64,000 nucleotides of DNA from a phage, in the sequence record PZ154895.1. One strand, given 5' to 3'. Position numbers and translations under genes: made by a program. The notes beneath the pieces are model-generated. The model saw nothing but the letters and a program-made list of their open reading frames with translations. It had not been told where the DNA came from and ran no database searches. This document shows, piece after piece, positions 5,001 to 61,085 of this stretch. The number at the start of each line of letters is the position of its first letter. The stretch's first letter is position 1.

Positions 5001-5620
5001 AAAAATATATAACTTATTTAACAATATATAGTGGAGATAAACTTCCTCCTTTTTATATTGGATCTACATCTTTAGACAGGCATTTAGCCGGATATCATGG
5101 ATCAGTTTTATCTAAAAAGTATAAGAAAATTTATAATGAAGAACTTTCAAATAACCCACATTTATTTGATTCATGCATTTTAGATGAATTTGATACACGC
5201 GAAGAAGCTATTAAATGCGAGCTATATTATCAACGTTTGCATGATGCGGTTAAAAATCCATTATTCTTTAATATGTCATATGCTGCTCCAAAAGGTTCAT
5301 TTGGAAGAGATATTAAAGGACAAAATCATCCATTATATGGTTCTCATAATTGTAAAGGAAACATACATTCACATGACCCATTAACAGGAAAATCTGCCTT
5401 TTTACCGTATATTCCAGAAGGTTATGTAAAAGGAAGGTCAAATAAATTTAAAGCTTCATCACATAATAAAGGTAAAAAATGGTATAATAACGGAGTTAAG
5501 CAAATGTTATGTCATGAACCTCCTGGTCCTGAATGGACAAAAGGAAAAATTAAAGAACTAGTTTCAAAAGCAGCTAAATTAGGATGGAAAAGACACCATG
5601 AAAATACTAAACTTGGGTGA
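4997..5620 (+). CDS. Seg-like (degenerate GIY-YIG) freestanding endonuclease
   Basis: 207 aa; N-terminal ITYL...PPFYIGST...R..H block and E..YYQ..NP.FFN block; paralogous to ORF 61737-62369. Confidence 0.5.
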   Translation: MKKYITYLTIYSGDKLPPFYIGSTSLDRHLAGYHGSVLSKKYKKIYNEELSNNPHLFDSCILDEFDTREEAIKCELYYQRLHDAVKNPLFFNMSYAAPKGSFGRDIKGQNHPLYGSHNCKGNIHSHDPLTGKSAFLPYIPEGYVKGRSNKFKASSHNKGKKWYNNGVKQMLCHEPPGPEWTKGKIKELVSKAAKLGWKRHHENTKLG

Positions 5621-13035: not shown

Positions 13036-13089
13036 AGAGTATAATATATCAAGAGCCTAATAACTCGGGCTATAAACTAAGGAATATCT

Positions 13090-15786
13090 ATGAAAGAATT
13101 TTATATCTCTATCGAAACAGTCGGAAATAATATTGTTGAGCGTTATATTGATGAAAACGGAAAGGAACGTACTCGTGAAGTAGAATATCTTCCGACTATG
13201 TTTAGGCATTGTAAGGAAGAGTCAAAGTACAAAGACATTTACGGTAAAAATTGCGCTCCTCAAAAATTTCCATCAATGAAAGATGCACGAGACTGGATGA
13301 AGCGAATGGAAGACATCGGTCTCGAAGCTCTTGGTATGAACGATTTTAAACTCGCTTATATCAGTGATACATATGGTTCAGAAATTGTTTATGACCGAAA
13401 ATTTGTTCGTGTAGCTAACTGTGACATTGAGGTTACTGGCGATAAATTTCCTGACCCAATGAAAGCAGAATATGAAATTGATGCTATCACTCATTATGAT
13501 TCAATTGACGACCGTTTTTACGTCTTTGATTTGTTGAATTCAATGTACGGTTCAGTATCAAAATGGGATGCAAAGTTAGCTGCTAAACTTGACTGTGAAG
13601 GTGGTGATGAAGTTCCTCAAGAAATTCTTGACCGAGTAATTTATATGCCATTTGATAATGAGCGTGATATGCTCATGGAATATATTAATCTCTGGGAACA
13701 GAAACGACCTGCTATTTTTACTGGTTGGAATATTGAGGGATTTGACGTTCCGTATATCATGAATCGCGTTAAAATGGTTCTTGGTGAACGTAGTATGAAA
13801 CGCTTCTCTCCAATCGGTCGAGTAAAATCTAAACTAATTCAAAATATGTACGGTAGCAAAGAAATTTATTCTATTGATGGCGTATCTATTCTTGATTATT
13901 TAGATTTGTACAAGAAATTCGCATTTACTAATTTGCCATCATTCTCTTTGGAATCAGTTGCTCAACATGAAACCAAAAAAGGTAAATTGCCGTACGATGG
14001 TCCTATTAATAAACTTCGTGAGACTAATCATCAACGATACATTAGTTATAACATTATTGACGTAGAATCAGTTCAAGCAATTGATAAAATTCGTGGGTTT
14101 ATCGATCTAGTTTTAAGTATGTCTTATTATGCTAAAATGCCTTTTTCTGGTGTAATGAGTCCTATTAAAACTTGGGATGCTATTATTTTTAACTCACTGA
14201 AAAGTGAACATAAGGTTATTCCTCAACAAGGTTCGCACGTTAAGCAGAGTTTTCCAGGCGCATTTGTGTTTGAACCTAAACCGATTGCCCGTCGATACAT
14301 TATGAGTTTTGACTTGACATCTCTGTATCCTAGCATTATTCGTCAGGTTAACATTAGTCCTGAGACTATTCGTGGACAGTTTAAAGTTCATCCAATTCAT
14401 GAATATATCGCAGGAACAGCTCCTAAGCCAAGTGATGAATATTCTTGTTCTCCGAATGGATGGATGTATGATAAGCACCAAGAAGGTATCATTCCAAAGG
14501 AAATCGCTAAAGTATTTTTCCAGCGTAAAGATTGGAAAAAGAAAATGTTCGCCGAAGAAATGAATGCCGAAGCTATTAAAAAGATTATTATGAAAGGTGC
14601 AGGGTCTTGCTCAACTAAGCCAGAAGTTGAACGATATGTTAAGTTCAGTGATGATTTCTTAAATGAATTATCGAATTACACCGAATCTGTTCTTAATAGT
14701 CTGATCGAAGAATGTGAAAAAGCAGCTACACTTGCTAACACAAATCAGCTGAACCGTAAAATTCTTATCAACAGTCTTTATGGTGCTCTTGGTAATATTC
14801 ATTTCCGTTACTATGATTTGCGAAATGCTACTGCTATCACAATTTTTGGTCAAGTTGGTATTCAGTGGATTGCTCGTAAAATTAATGAATATCTGAATAA
14901 AGTGTGTGGAACTGATGGTGAAGATTTCATCGCAGCAGGTGATACTGATTCGGTATATGTTTGTGTAGATAAAGTAATTGAAAAAGTAGGTCTTGACCGC
15001 TTTAAAGAACAAAATGATTTAGTTGAATTCATGAATCAGTTTGGTAAGAAAAAGATGGAACCTATGATTGATGTTGCATATCGTGAGTTATGTGATTATA
15101 TGAATAACCGCGAGCATCTGATGCATATGGACCGTGAAGCTATTTCTTGCCCTCCACTCGGTTCAAAGGGTGTTGGTGGATTTTGGAAAGCGAAAAAACG
15201 TTATGCTCTGAACGTTTATGATATGGAAGATAAGCGATTTGCTGAACCACATCTAAAAATCATGGGTATGGAAACTCAACAGAGTTCAACACCAAAAGCA
15301 GTGCAAGAAGCTCTCGAAGAAAGTATTCGTCGTATTCTTCAGGAAGGTGAAGAGTCTGTCCAAGAATACTATAAGAACTTTGAGAAAGAATACCGTCAAC
15401 TTGACTATAAAGTTATTGCTGAAGTAAAAACCGCGAACGATATAGCAAAATATGACGATAAGGGTTGGCCAGGATTTAAATGTCCGTTCCATATTCGTGG
15501 TGTGCTAACTTATCGTCGAGCTGTTAGCGGTTTAGGTGTAGCTCCAATTTTGGATGGAAATAAGGTAATGGTTCTTCCGTTACGTGAGGGAAATCCATTT
15601 GGTGACAAGTGTATTGCTTGGCCGTCGGGCACAGAACTTCCAAAAGAAATTCGTTCTGATGTACTGTCTTGGATTGACTACTCAACTTTGTTCCAAAAAT
15701 CGTTTGTTAAACCGCTTGCGGGCATGTGTGAATCGGCAGGTATGGACTATGAGGAAAAAGCTTCGTTAGACTTCCTGTTTGGCTGA
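13090..15786 (+). CDS. 43: gp43 DNA polymerase (family B, proofreading)
   Basis: 898 aa, same length as T4 gp43; MKEFYISIETVGNNIVERYIDENGKER...; no intein or intron. Confidence 0.97.
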   Translation: MKEFYISIETVGNNIVERYIDENGKERTREVEYLPTMFRHCKEESKYKDIYGKNCAPQKFPSMKDARDWMKRMEDIGLEALGMNDFKLAYISDTYGSEIVYDRKFVRVANCDIEVTGDKFPDPMKAEYEIDAITHYDSIDDRFYVFDLLNSMYGSVSKWDAKLAAKLDCEGGDEVPQEILDRVIYMPFDNERDMLMEYINLWEQKRPAIFTGWNIEGFDVPYIMNRVKMVLGERSMKRFSPIGRVKSKLIQNMYGSKEIYSIDGVSILDYLDLYKKFAFTNLPSFSLESVAQHETKKGKLPYDGPINKLRETNHQRYISYNIIDVESVQAIDKIRGFIDLVLSMSYYAKMPFSGVMSPIKTWDAIIFNSLKSEHKVIPQQGSHVKQSFPGAFVFEPKPIARRYIMSFDLTSLYPSIIRQVNISPETIRGQFKVHPIHEYIAGTAPKPSDEYSCSPNGWMYDKHQEGIIPKEIAKVFFQRKDWKKKMFAEEMNAEAIKKIIMKGAGSCSTKPEVERYVKFSDDFLNELSNYTESVLNSLIEECEKAATLANTNQLNRKILINSLYGALGNIHFRYYDLRNATAITIFGQVGIQWIARKINEYLNKVCGTDGEDFIAAGDTDSVYVCVDKVIEKVGLDRFKEQNDLVEFMNQFGKKKMEPMIDVAYRELCDYMNNREHLMHMDREAISCPPLGSKGVGGFWKAKKRYALNVYDMEDKRFAEPHLKIMGMETQQSSTPKAVQEALEESIRRILQEGEESVQEYYKNFEKEYRQLDYKVIAEVKTANDIAKYDDKGWPGFKCPFHIRGVLTYRRAVSGLGVAPILDGNKVMVLPLREGNPFGDKCIAWPSGTELPKEIRSDVLSWIDYSTLFQKSFVKPLAGMCESAGMDYEEKASLDFLFG

Positions 15787-20192: not shown

Positions 20193-21620
20193 GTGGTAGA
20201 AATTATTCTTTCTCATCTCATATTTGATCAAGCTTATTTTTCAAAAGTTTGGCCATATATGGATTCAGAATATTTTGAAAGTGGTCCAGCTAAAAATACA
20301 TTCAAATTAATTAAATCTCATGTTAATGAATACCATAGCGTTCCATCTATTAATGCGTTAAATGTTGCATTAGAAAATAGTTCATTTACTGAAACAGAAT
20401 ATTCTGGTGTAAAAACACTTATTTCAAAACTGGCCGATTCTCCGGAAGACCATAGCTGGTTAGTAAAAGAAACAGAAAAATATATTCAGCAAAGGGCGAT
20501 GTTTAACGCCACATCTAAAATAATTGAAATTCAAACTAATGCTGAGCTTCCTCCGGAAAAACGAAATAAGAAAATGCCAGATGTAGGTGCTATTCCTGAC
20601 ATCATGCGCCAAGCATTATCAATTTCATTTGATAGCTACGTTGGTCATGATTGGATGGATGACTACGAAGCACGTTGGCTATCTTATATGAATAAAGCTC
20701 GTAAGGTTCCATTTAAACTCAAAATTCTAAATAAAATTACTAAAGGCGGAGCTGAGACTGGAACACTGAACGTTTTAATGGCTGGTGTTAACGTTGGTAA
20801 GTCATTAGGATTGTGTTCATTGGCAGCAGATTATTTGCAGCTCGGACACAATGTTCTTTACATTTCCATGGAAATGGCAGAAGAAGTCTGCGCTAAGCGT
20901 ATTGACGCTAACATGCTCGATGTTTCTCTTGATGACATTGATGATGGGCATATTTCTTACGCTGAATATAAAGGAAAAATGGAAAAATGGCGTGAGAAAT
21001 CTACTCTTGGACGTTTAATCGTTAAACAGTATCCTACTGGTGGAGCAGACGCTAATACATTTCGGTCGCTTTTAAATGAATTAAAGCTCAAGAAGAATTT
21101 TGTTCCAACAATCATTATTGTTGACTATCTGGGTATTTGTAAATCTTGCCGCATTAGAGTTTATTCAGAAAATAGTTACACAACTGTTAAAGCCATCGCA
21201 GAAGAATTGCGTGCTCTGGCTGTTGAAACCGAAACTGTTCTTTGGACTGCAGCACAGGTTGGTAAGCAAGCTTGGGATTCTTCTGATGTTAACATGAGCG
21301 ATATTGCAGAATCTGCCGGTCTTCCAGCAACAGCCGATTTTATGCTTGCGGTCATTGAAACCGAGGAGTTAGCAGCTGCTGAACAACAACTCATTAAGCA
21401 AATCAAATCACGATACGGTGATAAGAATAAATGGAATAAGTTTTTGATGGGTGTTCAAAAAGGAAATCAGAAATGGGTAGAAATTGAACAAGATTCTACT
21501 CCAACTGAAGTGAACGAAGTAGCAGGTTCACAGCAGATTCAGGCTGAACAGAATCGCTATCAAAGAAACGAATCCGCTCGAGCTCAGTTAGATGCTTTGG
21601 CAAATGAATTAAAATTTTAG
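20193..21620 (+). CDS. 41: gp41 replicative DNA helicase (DnaB-like)
   Basis: 475 aa, GTG start; MVEIILSHLIFDQAYFSKVW... matches T4 gp41; Walker A GVNVGKS. Confidence 0.95.
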   Translation: MVEIILSHLIFDQAYFSKVWPYMDSEYFESGPAKNTFKLIKSHVNEYHSVPSINALNVALENSSFTETEYSGVKTLISKLADSPEDHSWLVKETEKYIQQRAMFNATSKIIEIQTNAELPPEKRNKKMPDVGAIPDIMRQALSISFDSYVGHDWMDDYEARWLSYMNKARKVPFKLKILNKITKGGAETGTLNVLMAGVNVGKSLGLCSLAADYLQLGHNVLYISMEMAEEVCAKRIDANMLDVSLDDIDDGHISYAEYKGKMEKWREKSTLGRLIVKQYPTGGADANTFRSLLNELKLKKNFVPTIIIVDYLGICKSCRIRVYSENSYTTVKAIAEELRALAVETETVLWTAAQVGKQAWDSSDVNMSDIAESAGLPATADFMLAVIETEELAAAEQQLIKQIKSRYGDKNKWNKFLMGVQKGNQKWVEIEQDSTPTEVNEVAGSQQIQAEQNRYQRNESARAQLDALANELKF

Positions 21621-21657
21621 TTTACAAGCCGACAAGACTATGGTATAGTAGTCTTGT
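21620..21657 (+). promoter_or_regulatory. early promoter with inverted repeat around the -10
   Basis: Stop TAG fused to GTTTAC (21620-21625); -10 TATAGT 21644-21649 inside stem ACAAGACTA/TAGTCTTGT (21632-21657). Confidence 0.55.
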
Positions 21658-21678
21658 TGGTTAAATGAGGAGATTTTT

Positions 21679-21861
21679 ATGGAATTGGTAAAGGTAGTTT
21701 TTATGGGGTGGTTTAAGAATGAAAGCATGTTTACTAAAGAAATCACAATGATGAAAGATGACGTTCAATGGGCTACTACTCAATATGCTGAAGTTAATAA
21801 AGCGCTAGTTAAAGCTTTCATTGATGACAAGAAAGTATGCGAAGTGGATTGCCGAGGATAA
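21679..21861 (+). CDS. dmd: Dmd antitoxin (discriminator of mRNA degradation)
   Basis: 60 aa; MELVKVVFMGWFKNESMFTKEI... matches T4 Dmd as recalled. Confidence 0.8.
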   Translation: MELVKVVFMGWFKNESMFTKEITMMKDDVQWATTQYAEVNKALVKAFIDDKKVCEVDCRG

Positions 21862-21862
21862 T

Positions 21863-22120
21863 ATGCATATTGTTTTATTTAAACCTACTCCGTATAACGT
21901 CAGGAAAAATACTCAATTCAAAGCACTTATCGCAGATACGTGGGAATTGGTATTAGATATTCCAGCAGAAGAAAGCCCTCCATTTGGTCGAGTGGAATTT
22001 ATTAAGTTTGCTGTGCGCCCTACGAAGCGACAGATTCGTCAATGCAAAAGATACTTTCGTAAAATCGTCAAGTTAGAGAAACAGTTTGTAACATGTGATT
22101 ATACAGAAGTTTTAAAATAG
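21863..22120 (+). CDS. hypothetical protein, 85 aa (61.4 position)
   Basis: ATG 2 nt after dmd stop; track ORF 21821 trimmed. Confidence 0.45.
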   Translation: MHIVLFKPTPYNVRKNTQFKALIADTWELVLDIPAEESPPFGRVEFIKFAVRPTKRQIRQCKRYFRKIVKLEKQFVTCDYTEVLK

Positions 22121-22122
22121 TA

Positions 22123-22164
22123 GTTTACAAGCTGATAGAGTTGTGTTATAGTAATTCTATCAGC
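22123..22164 (+). promoter_or_regulatory. early promoter with inverted repeat around the -10
   Basis: TAG-GTTTAC fusion; -10 TATAGT 22147-22152 between GCTGATAGA and TCTATCAGC. Confidence 0.55.
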
Positions 22165-22183
22165 TAATCGCGGAGAAAAGAAA

Positions 22184-22438
22184 ATGATGCTAGTTAATAG
22201 AGAATATCAGTTTAAATCAGAAGAAGATTTGGAAAAATTCGCGAGTGGTTGTGAACTGAATAGACGCACAGCTAAAGTCATAGGATTAAAACCCTTTACA
22301 GTTCTAGATTGTGAAGTTTCTAAATTCCGCAGAGGGTGTTCTATTAGCAGTCATGCTCTGGTTGATGGGAACACATTTTTCTTTGTTTTTAGCGTCAGAG
22401 AACTTTTATTGATTAACGAACTTGAGGAAATAAAATAG
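22184..22438 (+). CDS. hypothetical protein, 84 aa
   Basis: ORF downstream of early promoter. Confidence 0.45.
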   Translation: MMLVNREYQFKSEEDLEKFASGCELNRRTAKVIGLKPFTVLDCEVSKFRRGCSISSHALVDGNTFFFVFSVRELLLINELEEIK

Positions 22439-22502
22439 TTTACTTTTGTTTTAAACATGTTATTATAGACCTATCAAAACAAACGAGTAAATGGAGAATA
22501 AA

Positions 22503-22682
22503 ATGTCTAAAGTATCAGGTTATCAATTATTAACACAAGAACAACGTTCAGAGATGGATTCTTTACAAGAACGGTGTCAGCATAGAAATAACGCACTTGA
22601 TTCATTTTTATTAATTGAATATGAAAACTTGTGCTCTAGACTTGAAAAAGAATATGTTCATCAACATGGAGGAGAAGAATGA
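22503..22682 (+). CDS. hypothetical protein, 59 aa
   Basis: GGAGAATAAAATG leader; track ORF 22491 trimmed. Confidence 0.4.
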   Translation: MSKVSGYQLLTQEQRSEMDSLQERCQHRNNALDSFLLIEYENLCSRLEKEYVHQHGGEE

Positions 22683-22730
22683 AACTGAAATCACCAATTA
22701 TTGTAATTTGTCTGTTTGCTTCTACTAGTG

Positions 22731-22760
22731 TTTACTTTTGTTGAAAATTGAGATACTATA
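22731..22760 (+). promoter_or_regulatory. early promoter upstream of sp
   Basis: GTTTAC 22731-22736, 18 nt, TACTAT 22755-22760. Confidence 0.5.
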
Positions 22761-22785
22761 AACATAAACTACTGAGGAGATTATC

Positions 22786-23079
22786 ATGAAAAAATTTATC
22801 TTTGCTGCAATTTTTGCTTTATCTTCTTGCGCTGCTCAGCCTACTATGGCAGGCTATGATAAAGATTTGTGTGAGTGGTCTATGACTGCAGATCAGACTG
22901 AAGTTGAAACTCAAATTGAAGCCGATATTATGAATATCGTTGAGCGTGATCGTCCTGAAATGAAAGCTGAAGTGCAAAAACAACTTAAGTCTGGTGGTGT
23001 AATGCAGTATAATTATGTTCTGTATTGCGATAAAAACTTTAATAATAAAAATATCATCGCTGAAGTGGTAGGTGAGTAA
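22786..23079 (+). CDS. sp: Spackle (Sp) periplasmic superinfection-exclusion protein
   Basis: 97 aa with N-terminal signal peptide; sequence and position between dmd and 61 match T4 sp. Confidence 0.75.
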   Translation: MKKFIFAAIFALSSCAAQPTMAGYDKDLCEWSMTADQTEVETQIEADIMNIVERDRPEMKAEVQKQLKSGGVMQYNYVLYCDKNFNNKNIIAEVVGE

Positions 23080-23091
23080 ATAGAGGTTAGT

Positions 23092-23448
23092 ATGTATAGT
23101 TCTGAATTTTCATATTTAAAAATGGAAAAAATTTCATACGATTTCATAGATGAAAAGATTTATTACAGTTTCCATGAACCACGTTTTAATAGTGAAGTTG
23201 GGTTTATTGTAGTAAAAGACAATTTCATTTTAAAAATATATTCGGCATTAAAGGATTTTCACTACGAAAATATTAACCTAAAATTTGATAAAGAAAACGT
23301 TCGTAATTGCGCAGTAACAATTACAGGAAATAAAGGTACATGCGTTATGCTATCTGATGAAATTAATGATTTGTTAAATGATGCCGAAAAGGTTGCTATT
23401 CCATCGATTGATGACCAAATTTTTAATGCTTTTATGAATAGAGGTTAA
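23092..23448 (+). CDS. hypothetical protein, 118 aa
   Basis: ORF with RBS between sp and 61. Confidence 0.5.
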   Translation: MYSSEFSYLKMEKISYDFIDEKIYYSFHEPRFNSEVGFIVVKDNFILKIYSALKDFHYENINLKFDKENVRNCAVTITGNKGTCVMLSDEINDLLNDAEKVAIPSIDDQIFNAFMNRG

Positions 23449-23449
23449 T

Positions 23450-23614
23450 ATGAAAACATATAAAGAATTTATCAAAGAAGATATGGTAGCTGGAGATTCG
23501 GGTGGTAATCCTGAAAATATCTCTACTGGAACAACGTCAGGCGCTGTAGTAAATAAAGGTCCTGAACAGATTCCTAAAAAGAAAAAAGAGGAATCTAAAG
23601 AAAAAGAAGAGTAA
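23450..23614 (+). CDS. hypothetical Lys/Glu-rich protein, 54 aa
   Basis: ATG 23450 to TAA 23612-23614, 2 nt before gene 61; not in track. Confidence 0.35.
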   Translation: MKTYKEFIKEDMVAGDSGGNPENISTGTTSGAVVNKGPEQIPKKKKEESKEKEE

Positions 23615-23616
23615 AA

Positions 23617-24645
23617 ATGTCATCAATACCTTGGATTGATAATGAGTTTGCATATCGTGCATTAGCTCATTTACCTAAATTCACACAAGTAAATAATAGT
23701 TCAACTTTTAAATTACGGTTTAGATGCCCTGTTTGTGGAGATTCAAAAACCGACCAAAATAAAGCCCGTGGATGGTATTATGGCGATAATAATGAAGGAA
23801 ATATTCATTGTTATAACTGCAACTATCATGCACCAATCGGAATATATTTAAAGGAGTTTGAACCCGATTTATATCGTGAGTATATCTTTGAAATAAGAAA
23901 AGAAAAAGGTAAAAGTCGTCCAGTAGAAAAACCTAAAGAACTTCCTAAACAACCTGAGAAGAAAATAATTAAATCTCTTCCGTCATGCATTAGATTAGAT
24001 AAATTGGCGGAAGACCATCCAATTATAAAATATGTAAAAGCTCGCTGTATTCCAAAGGATAAATGGAAATATCTTTGGTTTACAACCGAATGGCCTAAAT
24101 TAGTTAATAGCATAGCACCAGGAACATACAAAAAGGAAATACCTGAGCCTCGTCTTGTTATTCCAATTTATAATGCTAATGGAAAAGCTGAGTCTTTTCA
24201 AGGACGTGCATTAAAGAAAGATGCTCCTCAAAAATATATCACCATCAAAGCTTATCCTGAAGCAACAAAAATCTATGGCGTTGAACGAGTTAAAGATGGT
24301 GATGTATATGTTCTAGAAGGACCTATAGATTCACTTTTTATTGAAAATGGTATAGCTATTACGGGCGGTCAATTAGACCTAGAAATTGTTCCATTTAAAG
24401 ATAGACGTGTGTGGGTTTTGGATAATGAACCTCGTCATCCTGACACTATTAAACGAATGACTAAATTAGTTGATGCAGGAGAAAGGGTTATGTTTTGGGA
24501 CAAATCTCCCTGGAAATCAAAAGATGTTAATGATATGATTAGAAAGGAAGGTGCAACCCCTGAACAAATTATGGAATATATGAAAAATAATATTGCCCAG
24601 GGGTTGATGGCTAAAATGCGGCTATCTAAATATGCTAAGATTTAA
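23617..24645 (+). CDS. 61: gp61 DNA primase
   Basis: 342 aa; zinc ribbon CPVCGDS...CYNC; length equals T4 gp61. Confidence 0.95.
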   Translation: MSSIPWIDNEFAYRALAHLPKFTQVNNSSTFKLRFRCPVCGDSKTDQNKARGWYYGDNNEGNIHCYNCNYHAPIGIYLKEFEPDLYREYIFEIRKEKGKSRPVEKPKELPKQPEKKIIKSLPSCIRLDKLAEDHPIIKYVKARCIPKDKWKYLWFTTEWPKLVNSIAPGTYKKEIPEPRLVIPIYNANGKAESFQGRALKKDAPQKYITIKAYPEATKIYGVERVKDGDVYVLEGPIDSLFIENGIAITGGQLDLEIVPFKDRRVWVLDNEPRHPDTIKRMTKLVDAGERVMFWDKSPWKSKDVNDMIRKEGATPEQIMEYMKNNIAQGLMAKMRLSKYAKI

Positions 24646-35260: not shown

Positions 35261-35476
35261 ATGAAACGTAAAATTGTTCAGAACTGCACTAATGACGAAT
35301 TTGAAGATGTATTATTCGATCCAGATTTGGTAGTAGTTCAAAAGGAACACACCATTAAGTTTACTCACTTGACTTCGGTTTATGTTTATGAAAAGGTTGG
35401 TGATAAACAGCCAATTTACGGTGTATTTCGTGAAATTACTGAAGATGGCACAACTTACTGGAAGGAAATTTATTAA
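35261..35476 (+). CDS. hypothetical protein, 71 aa
   Basis: GAGGAAA RBS. Confidence 0.45.
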
Positions 35477-35895
35477 TGGCTATTAGATTTGAAGTTAATA
35501 AATGGTATCAATTTAAAAATAAACAAGCTCAAGAAAATTTTATTAAAGACCATACTGATAACGGAATCTATGCACGACGTTTAGGTATGTATCCTTTTAA
35601 AATTTTAGATGTGGACGCTCTTGGGCGTCCTATTAAAATTTTGTCATCTACTGGAAATTTAGTACTATCTTCTGGTAAAGATGTTTTGGATGAAGACTTT
35701 ATTTGGCTTTCAAAAAGTGAAGCTGGGTTCTTTGATGAAGTGGAAAATCCATATCAGGCTGCTGAAGAACAAGAGCAGGAAGAGCAAGAACAAATAGAAG
35801 ATTTCACAGAATTCCCGGTAATGAAAGTTACTATTGAAAATAATGAACAGGCATGGTCCTTGTATCAGATGTTGAAAGCACATTTTAAGGAATAA
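35476..35895 (+). CDS. hypothetical protein with acidic [10 protein letters not shown] tract, 139 aa
   Basis: ORF with start overlapping upstream stop. Confidence 0.45.
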
Positions 35896-60499: not shown

Positions 60500-60769
60500 A
60501 TGGCTAAAAAAGAAATGATTGAATTTGATGAAGCTATCCATGGCGAAGACTTAGCTAAATTTATTAAAGAAGCATCTGATCATAAACTGAAAATTTCTGG
60601 TTATAATGAATTGATTAAAGATATTCGAATTCGTGCCAAAGATGAACTTGGCGTTGATGGTAAGATGTTTAATCGTCTGTTAGCTTTGTATCATAAAGAT
60701 AACCGTGATGTGTTTGAAGCTGAAACCGAAGAGGTAGTTGAACTTTATGACACAGTTTTCTCTAAATGA
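60500..60769 (+). CDS. dsbA: DsbA double-stranded DNA binding protein (late transcription)
   Basis: 89 aa; MAKKEMIEFDEAIHGEDLAKFIKE...; position between rnh and 33. Confidence 0.85.
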   Translation: MAKKEMIEFDEAIHGEDLAKFIKEASDHKLKISGYNELIKDIRIRAKDELGVDGKMFNRLLALYHKDNRDVFEAETEEVVELYDTVFSK

Positions 60770-61085
60770 TATTCGTCCGGTCGATGAGACCGGTCTTTCA
60801 GAAAAAGAACTTTCAATTAAGAAAGAAAAGGATGAAATAGCAAAACTTCTTGACCGTCAAGAAAATGGATTTATTATTGAAAAAATGGTAGAAGAATTTG
60901 GAATGAGTTATCTTGAAGCTACAACAGCATTCTTGGAAGAAAATTCTATTCCTGAAACTCAATTTGCTAAATTTATTCCTTCGGGTATAATTGAAAAAAT
61001 TCAGTCAGAAGCTATCGACGAAAATCTTTTACGTCCTTCTGTTGTTCGTTGTGAAAAAACTAATACATTAGATTTTCTACTATGA
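60747..61085 (+). CDS. 33: gp33 late transcription co-activator
   Basis: 112 aa from MTQFSLNDIRPVDETGLSEKEL...; track start trimmed. Confidence 0.88.
   Translation: MTQFSLNDIRPVDETGLSEKELSIKKEKDEIAKLLDRQENGFIIEKMVEEFGMSYLEATTAFLEENSIPETQFAKFIPSGIIEKIQSEAIDENLLRPSVVRCEKTNTLDFLL

Follow-up and report, generated by a model that had tools for sequence, protein, structure and literature searches.

The DNA analysed here is a stretch of 64,000 nucleotides (nt) of phage sequence record PZ154895.1 (the window), and the region in question is the interval between its gene 41, encoding the replicative helicase, and gene 61, encoding the DNA primase. The phage is T4-like and belongs to the genus Tequatrovirus: over bases 21400-23800 its DNA shows 99.3% identity to that of Shigella phage SH-2, and this stretch is matched by 552 T-even phage records. 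Seven small genes, all on the plus strand, were distinguished in the interval and are arranged in four early-promoter units (Table 1). They encode Dmd, Spackle and five small open reading frames (ORFs) of 85, 84, 59, 118 and 54 amino acids (aa), which were all found at the lengths listed in a first-pass annotation of the window made from the letters alone. The interval is very probably the hyperplastic early region, with four sigma-70 early promoters, that lies between genes 41 and 61 of Tequatrovirus and has been published as a candidate anti-toxin-antitoxin (anti-TA) island. The most useful new points concern the 118-aa ORF: a stand-alone family corresponding to the C-terminal domain of AdfA, and its invariant, apparently free C-terminal peptide.

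The ORFs of the interval should be regarded as real genes and not as chance ORFs, because each is conserved at the protein level in other phages (by tblastn, between 21 and 1397 records for each) and because the 84-, 59- and 118-aa ORFs have divergent homologues at 45-57% identity. The public genomes of tens to hundreds of phages already contain each of these ORFs (at least 95% identical), in most cases under the label 'hypothetical protein'. NCBIfam gave no match for any of the seven island proteins, and no Rfam family was found anywhere within the window. The gaps between the coupled genes are small: 1 nt separates dmd from the 85-aa ORF and the 118-aa from the 54-aa ORF, 12 nt separate sp from the 118-aa ORF, and 2 nt lie between the stop codon of the 54-aa ORF and the ATG of gene 61. 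With four promoters and these gaps, the earlier statement that each small ORF has its own early promoter or is tightly coupled to its upstream neighbour was borne out. Because of the promoter positions and the small gaps, the transcription units would be dmd-orf85, orf84, orf59 and sp-orf118-orf54(-61).

The arrangement resembles the dmd-tifA-sp-adfA-61.1 region of T4 (Srikant et al., eLife 2022; PMC9391042) in its flanks (genes 41 and 61), in its order (dmd, tifA, sp, the adfA slot, 61.1), in its early promoters and in the identity of the shared products, which reaches 100% for Dmd (60/60), 98% for TifA, 96% for Sp (93/97) and 96% for gp61.1. It differs in that T4 lacks the 84- and 59-aa cassettes and carries the 208-aa AdfA where the window has a 118-aa paralogue. 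When the comparison with T4 genes 61.1-61.4 suggested by the first-pass annotation was run, the 85-aa ORF corresponded to 61.4 and the 54-aa ORF to 61.1, and the 118-aa ORF occupied the 61.2 slot.

Table 1. Features of the gene 41-gene 61 interval, followed by other window genes used for comparison (PeSL, promoter early stem-loop).
Feature	Position	Strand	Remarks
Gene 41 (replicative helicase)	20193-21620	+	475-aa ORF; gp41/DnaB-like helicase in matching records; upstream boundary
Early promoter	21621-21662	+	TTTACA-17-TATAGT, TG-extended; scan 10/12; PeSL-like; drives dmd-tifA
dmd (gp61.5)	21679-21861	+	60 aa; Pfam PF17587 (1.6e-46)
tifA (gp61.4), 85-aa ORF	21863-22120	+	Pfam DUF7279 (72.8 bits); 83/85 vs T4
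Early promoter	22124-22165	+	TTTACA-17-TATAGT, upstream TG; promoter scan; PeSL-like; opens 84-aa cassette
84-aa ORF (orf84)	22184-22438	+	GoF N-terminal-domain-like; phrog_2980 (5.9e-20)
Early promoter	22439-22466	+	TTTACT-16-TATTAT, TG; promoter scan; for 59-aa cassette
59-aa ORF (orf59)	22503-22682	+	phrog_37915 mini-protein (7.7e-43)
Early promoter	22731-22759	+	TTTACT-17-TACTAT; read by eye; for sp-118aa-61.1(-61)
sp (Spackle)	22786-23079	+	97 aa; Pfam PF25676 (1.2e-44)
118-aa ORF (orf118)	23092-23448	+	Homologue of AdfA C-terminal half; Pfam PF23813
C-terminal tail segment of 118-aa ORF	23407-23445	+	Encodes motif (S)IDDQIFNAFMNRG
Gene 61.1, 54-aa ORF (orf54)	23450-23614	+	52/54 vs T4 gp61.1; phrog_1823 (7e-34)
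Gene 61 (DNA primase)	23617-24645	+	342-aa ORF; DNA primase in matching records; downstream boundary
goF	35443-35892		Full-length
gp43 (polymerase)	13081-15783
gp55	2115-2678
gp33	60738-61082

Dmd, TifA, Spackle and gp61.1

Dmd and Spackle proved as recognisable as had been claimed, with Pfam scores of 156.9 bits for Dmd and 151.3 bits for Spackle, the latter match being full-length (residues 1-96, signal peptide included). T4 Dmd binds and neutralises the RNase toxins RnlA and LsoA. Spackle is a periplasmic inhibitor of the gp5 lysozyme of the superinfecting phage and serves superinfection exclusion, not anti-defence; against this background its earlier inclusion among anti-defence genes does not stand.

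The 85-aa ORF, previously placed among the uncharacterised neighbours, can be assigned to TifA, the published ToxN inhibitor; its score on DUF7279 (PF23945) compares with a cut-off of 24.5 bits. Gene 61.4 of T4 has been renamed tifA; its product is a protein that inhibits the endoribonuclease ToxN (PMC9391042), and it does so by trapping ToxN on RNA (PMC10853763). The first-pass annotation was right that the T4 interval holds a ToxN inhibitor and missed that the 85-aa ORF is this protein; its description of the neighbours as uncharacterised holds for the 118-, 84-, 59- and 54-aa ORFs. It had also named what would speak against its proposal, namely that all the small ORFs be characterised T4 proteins, and among the five this was found for TifA alone.

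In the window, tifA follows dmd in a two-gene operon under the early promoter at 21621, a layout shared with T4, where dmd and tifA form an operon under an early promoter (PMC9391042). Residues 1-80 are identical to those of T4 TifA, and the basic RNA-binding patch (RPTKRQIR...; K55/R56/R59 in RB69 TifA) is therefore intact, while interface residue 41 is Phe, the T4-type allele, which is the weaker one (PMC10853763). Being 98% identical to T4 TifA, for which this activity was tested, the window TifA would be expected to inhibit ToxN in vivo. TifA is present in 676 phage records. The gene that carries the annotation 61.4 has 243 nt (80 aa) in PP01, SH7 and Ozark, as compared with 258 nt (85 aa) in the window (coordinates 1964-2206 in locus L002 and 764-1006 in both L005 and L007). 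According to the intergenic alignment, the junction between tifA and the orf84 cassette in SH7 is unlike that of the window, and those of PP01 and Ozark likewise differ; the insertion of the cassette appears to have changed the C-terminus of TifA in these three phages.

The 54-aa ORF encodes gp61.1, whose N-terminal 42 residues were found in 1397 phage records, from hosts including Escherichia, Klebsiella, Acinetobacter, Aeromonas, Enterobacter and Serratia. This spread exceeds that of TifA, of AdfA (487 records for the full-length protein) and of the other island genes. Much of the peptide is of low complexity, notably a C-terminal tail rich in Lys and Glu, and in every locus examined the primase gene follows gene 61.1 directly. 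Because of this wide conservation and the tight coupling to the primase gene, a host-specific counter-defence role is unlikely, contrary to the earlier listing of this ORF among the anti-defence candidates; gp61.1 is near-core, and a tie to primase expression or function is more likely than one to defence. The literature search found no paper on gp61.1, on the PHROG and DUF identifiers of the island or on RB32ORF033c.

The 118-aa protein and the AdfA family

The 118-aa ORF is homologous to the C-terminal half of AdfA (anti-DarT factor A; T4 gp61.2; RB69 ORF034) and encodes this single domain on its own. It matches the Pfam AdfA profile PF23813 with 34 bits (cut-off 27; E 2.5e-8), the match being confined to profile positions 114-211 of 211; BLASTP aligns it with residues 109-208 of T4 AdfA at 35% identity, and hhalign relates the C-terminal half of AdfA to the short family with a probability of 98% (E 1.6e-13). 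Like AdfA, it ends in the DDQIFNAFM tail and occupies the same genomic slot, and the homologous region (residues ~109-208) covers the RB69 residue that controls DarT1 binding. Unlike AdfA, it is short (118 versus 208-212 aa), as the full-length architecture combines an N-terminal with a C-terminal half. The idea that the two halves of AdfA arose by duplication of the 118-aa domain was tried and rejected, as hhalign of the N-terminal half of AdfA against the C-terminal half or the short family gave a probability of 3-10%.

The gene was found in 337 phage records, in 295 of them at 90% identity or more, and is conserved at full length. In phages GEP001 and Ozark it adjoins a full-length adfA (~210 aa) in tandem, so that up to two members of the family stand side by side in one phage; because of this co-occurrence orf118 is a paralogue of adfA and not an allele. 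Orthologues of the same length, 45-50% identical, occur in Gaprivervirus, where a third architecture of ~146 aa adjoins. The AlphaFold2 (AF2) model of the 118-aa protein, built from 44 sequences, has a mean predicted local distance difference test score (pLDDT) of 82.9 and a predicted template modelling score (pTM) of 0.73; its fold comprises a sheet of five strands, two helices and one further strand, the sixth. The structure search found nothing solved or viral-predicted outside the family that resembles this model, and a sequence search for relatives of solved structure found none for the 118-, 85- and 59-aa ORFs.

These data also bear on the alternative that the 118-aa ORF is a decayed, N-terminally truncated remnant of adfA and not a distinct gene. 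Such an origin would account for its place in the adfA position, for a profile match by the C-terminal half alone and for the last 42 nt of the gene, which differ from those of T4 adfA at a single, synonymous position (TCG/TCT). An identity of 35% to the C-terminal half is nevertheless not that of a recent truncation, and neither the number of nearly identical full-length copies, nor the same-length orthologues of Gaprivervirus, nor the confident single-domain model fits a remnant. The tandem co-occurrence with intact adfA, together with the deep divergence, effectively refutes this reading in favour of a distinct stand-alone gene.

All three architectures of the family (118, ~146 and ~210 aa) end in the invariant tail DDQIFNAFM, in fuller form DDQIFNAFM(N/K)(R/K)(G/D), although their bodies are 20-35% identical (compared in the window and in loci L001, L003, L008, L009 and L011). 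In alignments A1 and A2, positions D107, D108 and Q109-M115 of the 118-aa ORF are invariant or nearly so. The codons of the tail vary synonymously while the peptide is unchanged, which indicates that selection acts on the protein. In the model, the tail helix is poorly anchored (pLDDT about 52-55). The invariance of the tail, its synonymous codon changes and its low pLDDT together suggest that it is a docking peptide, with a partner that stays constant. One candidate partner, the gp45 clamp, was rejected, since IDDQIFNAFMNRG does not fit the clamp-binding motif (S/T)LDFL; the expected clamp-binding tails were found at the C-termini of the window's gp43, gp55 and gp33 (SLDFLFG, SLDFLY.. and TLDFLL, respectively).

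An extension of the docking idea would make the AdfA superfamily a set of modular adaptors, in which a body that evolves fast recognises differing host toxins or defence proteins and the invariant DDQIFNAFM, being flexibly attached, docks onto the constant partner. We regard this as improbable. If it were true, the 118-aa protein would be the minimal functional unit, with a target other than the tested DarT1, and the constant partner might be, for example, a host protease, a chaperone or a phage replication protein.

Early promoters, the 84- and 59-aa cassettes and the variable slots

The scanned sites at 21621, 22124 and 22439 are of the T4 early type (GTTTAC...TATAGT kind). The fourth site, at 22731-22759, has 8/12 matches and lies below the threshold of the promoter scanner, and its region is nearly identical to the promoter region between tifA and sp in T4 and pSs-1. 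It shares GTTTACTTTTGTT with the 22439 promoter. In the intergenic alignment, the promoter before sp has the same sequence in every phage aligned, and each inserted cassette starts from a promoter of its own, the sequences meeting again at GTTTACTTTTGTT; among close relatives a promoter sits at the indel junction for all cassettes, and the start junction of the 84-aa cassette at 22124 was also found in SH7. Cassettes with their own early promoter are probably gained, lost and swapped by recombination inside the common promoter sequence, a mode of exchange that matches published PeSL behaviour, the promoter-mediated shuffling of ORFans described in T4-type phages (PMC2839356; PMC4122927).

The island promoters are close to the published TTTACW-N17-TAYWAT consensus of PeSL cassettes, lie like these at indel junctions, and in two cases carry strong stem-loops (Arbiol, 2010; Comeau, 2014; PMC4122927). 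The stem-loop before dmd corresponds to inverted repeat I6 (RNA fold of -21.8 kcal/mol, z -5.6) and the one before orf84 to inverted repeat I5 (-18 kcal/mol, z -3.7). In contrast to PeSL cassettes, these two stem-loops overlap the -10 element, and no significant stem-loop was found by RNA folding at the 22439 promoter (z -0.95). With a significant stem-loop in two of the four promoters, the PeSL label appears to fit the island in part.

The variation in gene content between T-even phages, as had been claimed, was evident in two slots. Slot A, from tifA to sp, is empty in T4, T2 and pSs-1, holds orf84 in SH7 and Ozark, orf84 and orf59 in the window, PP01 and GEP001, and imm and imm.1 in RB69. 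Slot B, from sp to 61.1, holds adfA in T4, adfA followed by two small ORFs in RB69, orf118 in the window, T2, PP01, SH7 and pSs-1, and adfA together with orf118 in GEP001 and Ozark. In RB69 (locus L011, 3512-4190, minus strand in the locus) the superinfection immunity genes imm and imm.1 stand beside sp, and because of their presence the tifA-sp slot can be seen to collect both superinfection-exclusion and anti-toxin genes. The interval between genes 41 and 61 of Gaprivervirus (SP18, L008 983-3933; VR25, L009 713-3933) contains 10-11 small genes, further unknown ORFs among them, in a different order: the series opens in SP18 with an orf84 homologue, and tifA comes behind the AdfA-like genes; the interval is thus plastic beyond Tequatrovirus.

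The product of the 84-aa ORF resembles the N-terminal domain (NTD) of GoF standing alone. It has no Pfam match, and its best family is phrog_2980 ('goF mRNA metabolism modulator'), followed by phrog_13003 (1.7e-3) and by matches to the N-termini of several longer PHROGs. BLASTP aligned it with residues 7-47 of T4 GoF (37% identity over 41 residues, E 2e-8). It also matches the window's own goF at E 2.9e-4; a MAFFT alignment (A3) placed it along the rest of the NTD of this GoF, with weak similarity there, and it ends where the NTD ends. The genome thus keeps full-length goF beside the 84-aa gene, which makes the two paralogues. As compared with the GoF/MotB.1/Frd.2 family (Kim et al., 2025; PMC12152347), the 84-aa ORF is likewise early and confined to T4-like phages; it differs in lacking the flexible, acidic linker and the C-terminal domain that follow the NTD, and in having Gly22 at the position of GoF D25. 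It was found in 84 phage records, 13 of which are Gaprivervirus copies with 57% identity. A Foldseek search of BFVD matched its model to many small T4-like phage proteins (probability above 0.9, E about 1e-2), and a sequence search of solved structures gave matches at chance level alone (E about 0.5-1).

The NTD of GoF is predicted to be LSm-like, with the bent antiparallel beta-sheet of five strands that marks LSm/SH3-like folds, and of the GoF forms the mutant GoF(D25Y) alone stabilises gene 41 mRNA (PMC12152347). A role of the 84-aa protein on RNA, or on an RNA-handling protein, is for this reason put forward tentatively, and we consider it possible yet rather doubtful; an anti-defence role is speculative.

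The 59-aa protein is a rare helical mini-protein. Its start is ambiguous, as an ATG at 22491 would give 63 aa, and a GGAG Shine-Dalgarno sequence favours 22503. The gene occurs in 21 phage records, with no copy below 95% identity, and has phrog_37915 as its sole family match, with none in Pfam, NCBIfam or PDB. Exhaustive searching with HMMER against 1.84 billion representative proteins recovered ten relatives at 40-69% identity, none with a Pfam domain. One of these is a repetitive 389-aa protein that matches over a short stretch alone; the other nine have in common a 55-residue core (GYxLLTxEQRxEMDxLxERxTH...LDxxxLxEYExLCxRLExEY), and because of it the 59-aa ORF belongs to a real protein family, in which 15 columns are invariant at 44-59% identity in unrelated contigs. 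No match to the family was found in 185,579 GTDB genomes. Its genomic contexts, one IMG/VR contig and one Vibrio fluvialis plasmid with the gene among small unknown ORFs, gave no functional lead. The plasmid, pIDH5335-2 (locus L013), is a 103-kb linear 'plasmid' in which an unannotated ORF (5001-5171) is 68% identical to a family member, with a RelE/ParE toxin-antitoxin pair and an integrase upstream of it at a distance of about 1-2 kb. An anti-defence reading of the 59-aa ORF is speculative.

The 84- and 59-aa cassettes could also be ORFan passengers of promoter-mediated recombination, of little or no benefit to the phage. Each is a self-contained unit of promoter and ORF at the common promoter sequence, their distribution is patchy and of low frequency (84 and 21 of 50,697 phage records), ORFan shuffling of this kind is what the PeSL papers describe, and deletions of goF and motB.1 in T4 had no phenotype in the laboratory (PMC12152347). 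We nevertheless consider it unlikely that they are passengers, as the 84-aa protein is conserved at 55-57% identity in Gaprivervirus, the 59-aa family holds its invariant columns across unrelated contigs, both ORFs have good Shine-Dalgarno sites, and the capsid limits the genome size of T4-like phages (PMC9391042), so that useless DNA should be lost.

The interval as a candidate anti-toxin island

The proposal that the interval is an island of anti-toxin genes, made in the first-pass annotation, is already published: the 41-61 interval of T4 has been put forward as an 'anti-TA island', and its remaining genes have been called 'attractive anti-toxin candidates' (PMC9391042). In its broadest form, which treats the five small ORFs as uncharacterised throughout and every one of them as a new anti-toxin or anti-defence candidate, this idea draws on the proximity of the ORFs to Dmd and TifA, on the slot that holds AdfA in T4, on the small size and early expression of all five and the patchy distribution of three of them, as well as on the published hypothesis itself. 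We consider the broad form very unlikely. It is already refuted for the 85-aa ORF by the identity of this ORF with a characterised inhibitor; gp61.1 occurs in about 1400 phages of many host genera, unlike host-specific counter-defence; the 84-aa ORF falls in a GoF/LSm-like family with no defence link so far; and the T2 copy of the 118-aa gene gives no protection against DarTG1.

The narrower reading, of a plastic early region corresponding to the published candidate island, is the one we prefer, and the points that weigh against it, and against the roles proposed within it, are the following. Four of the five small ORFs are so far known as members of recognisable phage protein families, and the roles given to them are predictions. 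For the 84-aa ORF, the 'RNA-related' reading is weakened in that no activity is known for wild-type GoF or MotB.1 (PMC12152347), and its AF2 model, built from six sequences, reached a pLDDT of 62, with strands and two helices and with residues 47-76 unreliable. Two of the four promoters, those at 22439 and before sp, show no significant stem-loop. The remaining points concern the 118-aa ORF. It lacks the N-terminal half of AdfA. In RB69 AdfA, residue 164 decides the binding and neutralisation of DarT1, which His allows and Arg does not (PMC11257639); the corresponding position of the 118-aa ORF, on helix 67-78, is Asn72 or Cys73, the two alignments (BLASTP to AdfA and the multiple alignment) differing by one register. 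Deletion of AdfA in T4 gave no phenotype (PMC11257639). T2 carries a 93%-identical copy of the 118-aa ORF, annotated as '61.2' with 108 aa, and T2 lacking adfN drops by four logs of plating on DarTG1 (PMC11257639); because such T2 is DarTG1-sensitive, the T2 copy would not neutralise that DarT1 at native expression.

Among the five small ORFs the 118-aa ORF is nonetheless the best anti-defence candidate, with the indirect evidence speaking against an action on DarT1, and an anti-defence reading of this AdfA-like protein is plausible. It may bind a host toxin, DarT-like or other, stoichiometrically and with a specificity other than for the tested DarT1; we hold this quite possible, though somewhat less likely than not.

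The island as a whole adds no new kind of system: the region had been proposed before to be an anti-toxin island, and its arrangement here is a common one. Two likely mis-assignments are corrected by its analysis, as TifA is not an unknown protein and gp61.1 is not a host-specific counter-defence factor. The 84- and 59-aa genes are clean single-gene cassettes that some T-even phages carry and close relatives lack, and would suit comparative host-range tests. The strictly conserved tail of the AdfA family is an unexplained, testable feature, and the 118-aa protein, as a stand-alone AdfA C-terminal domain, would offer an inhibitor of the anti-DarT type in a minimal, tractable form.

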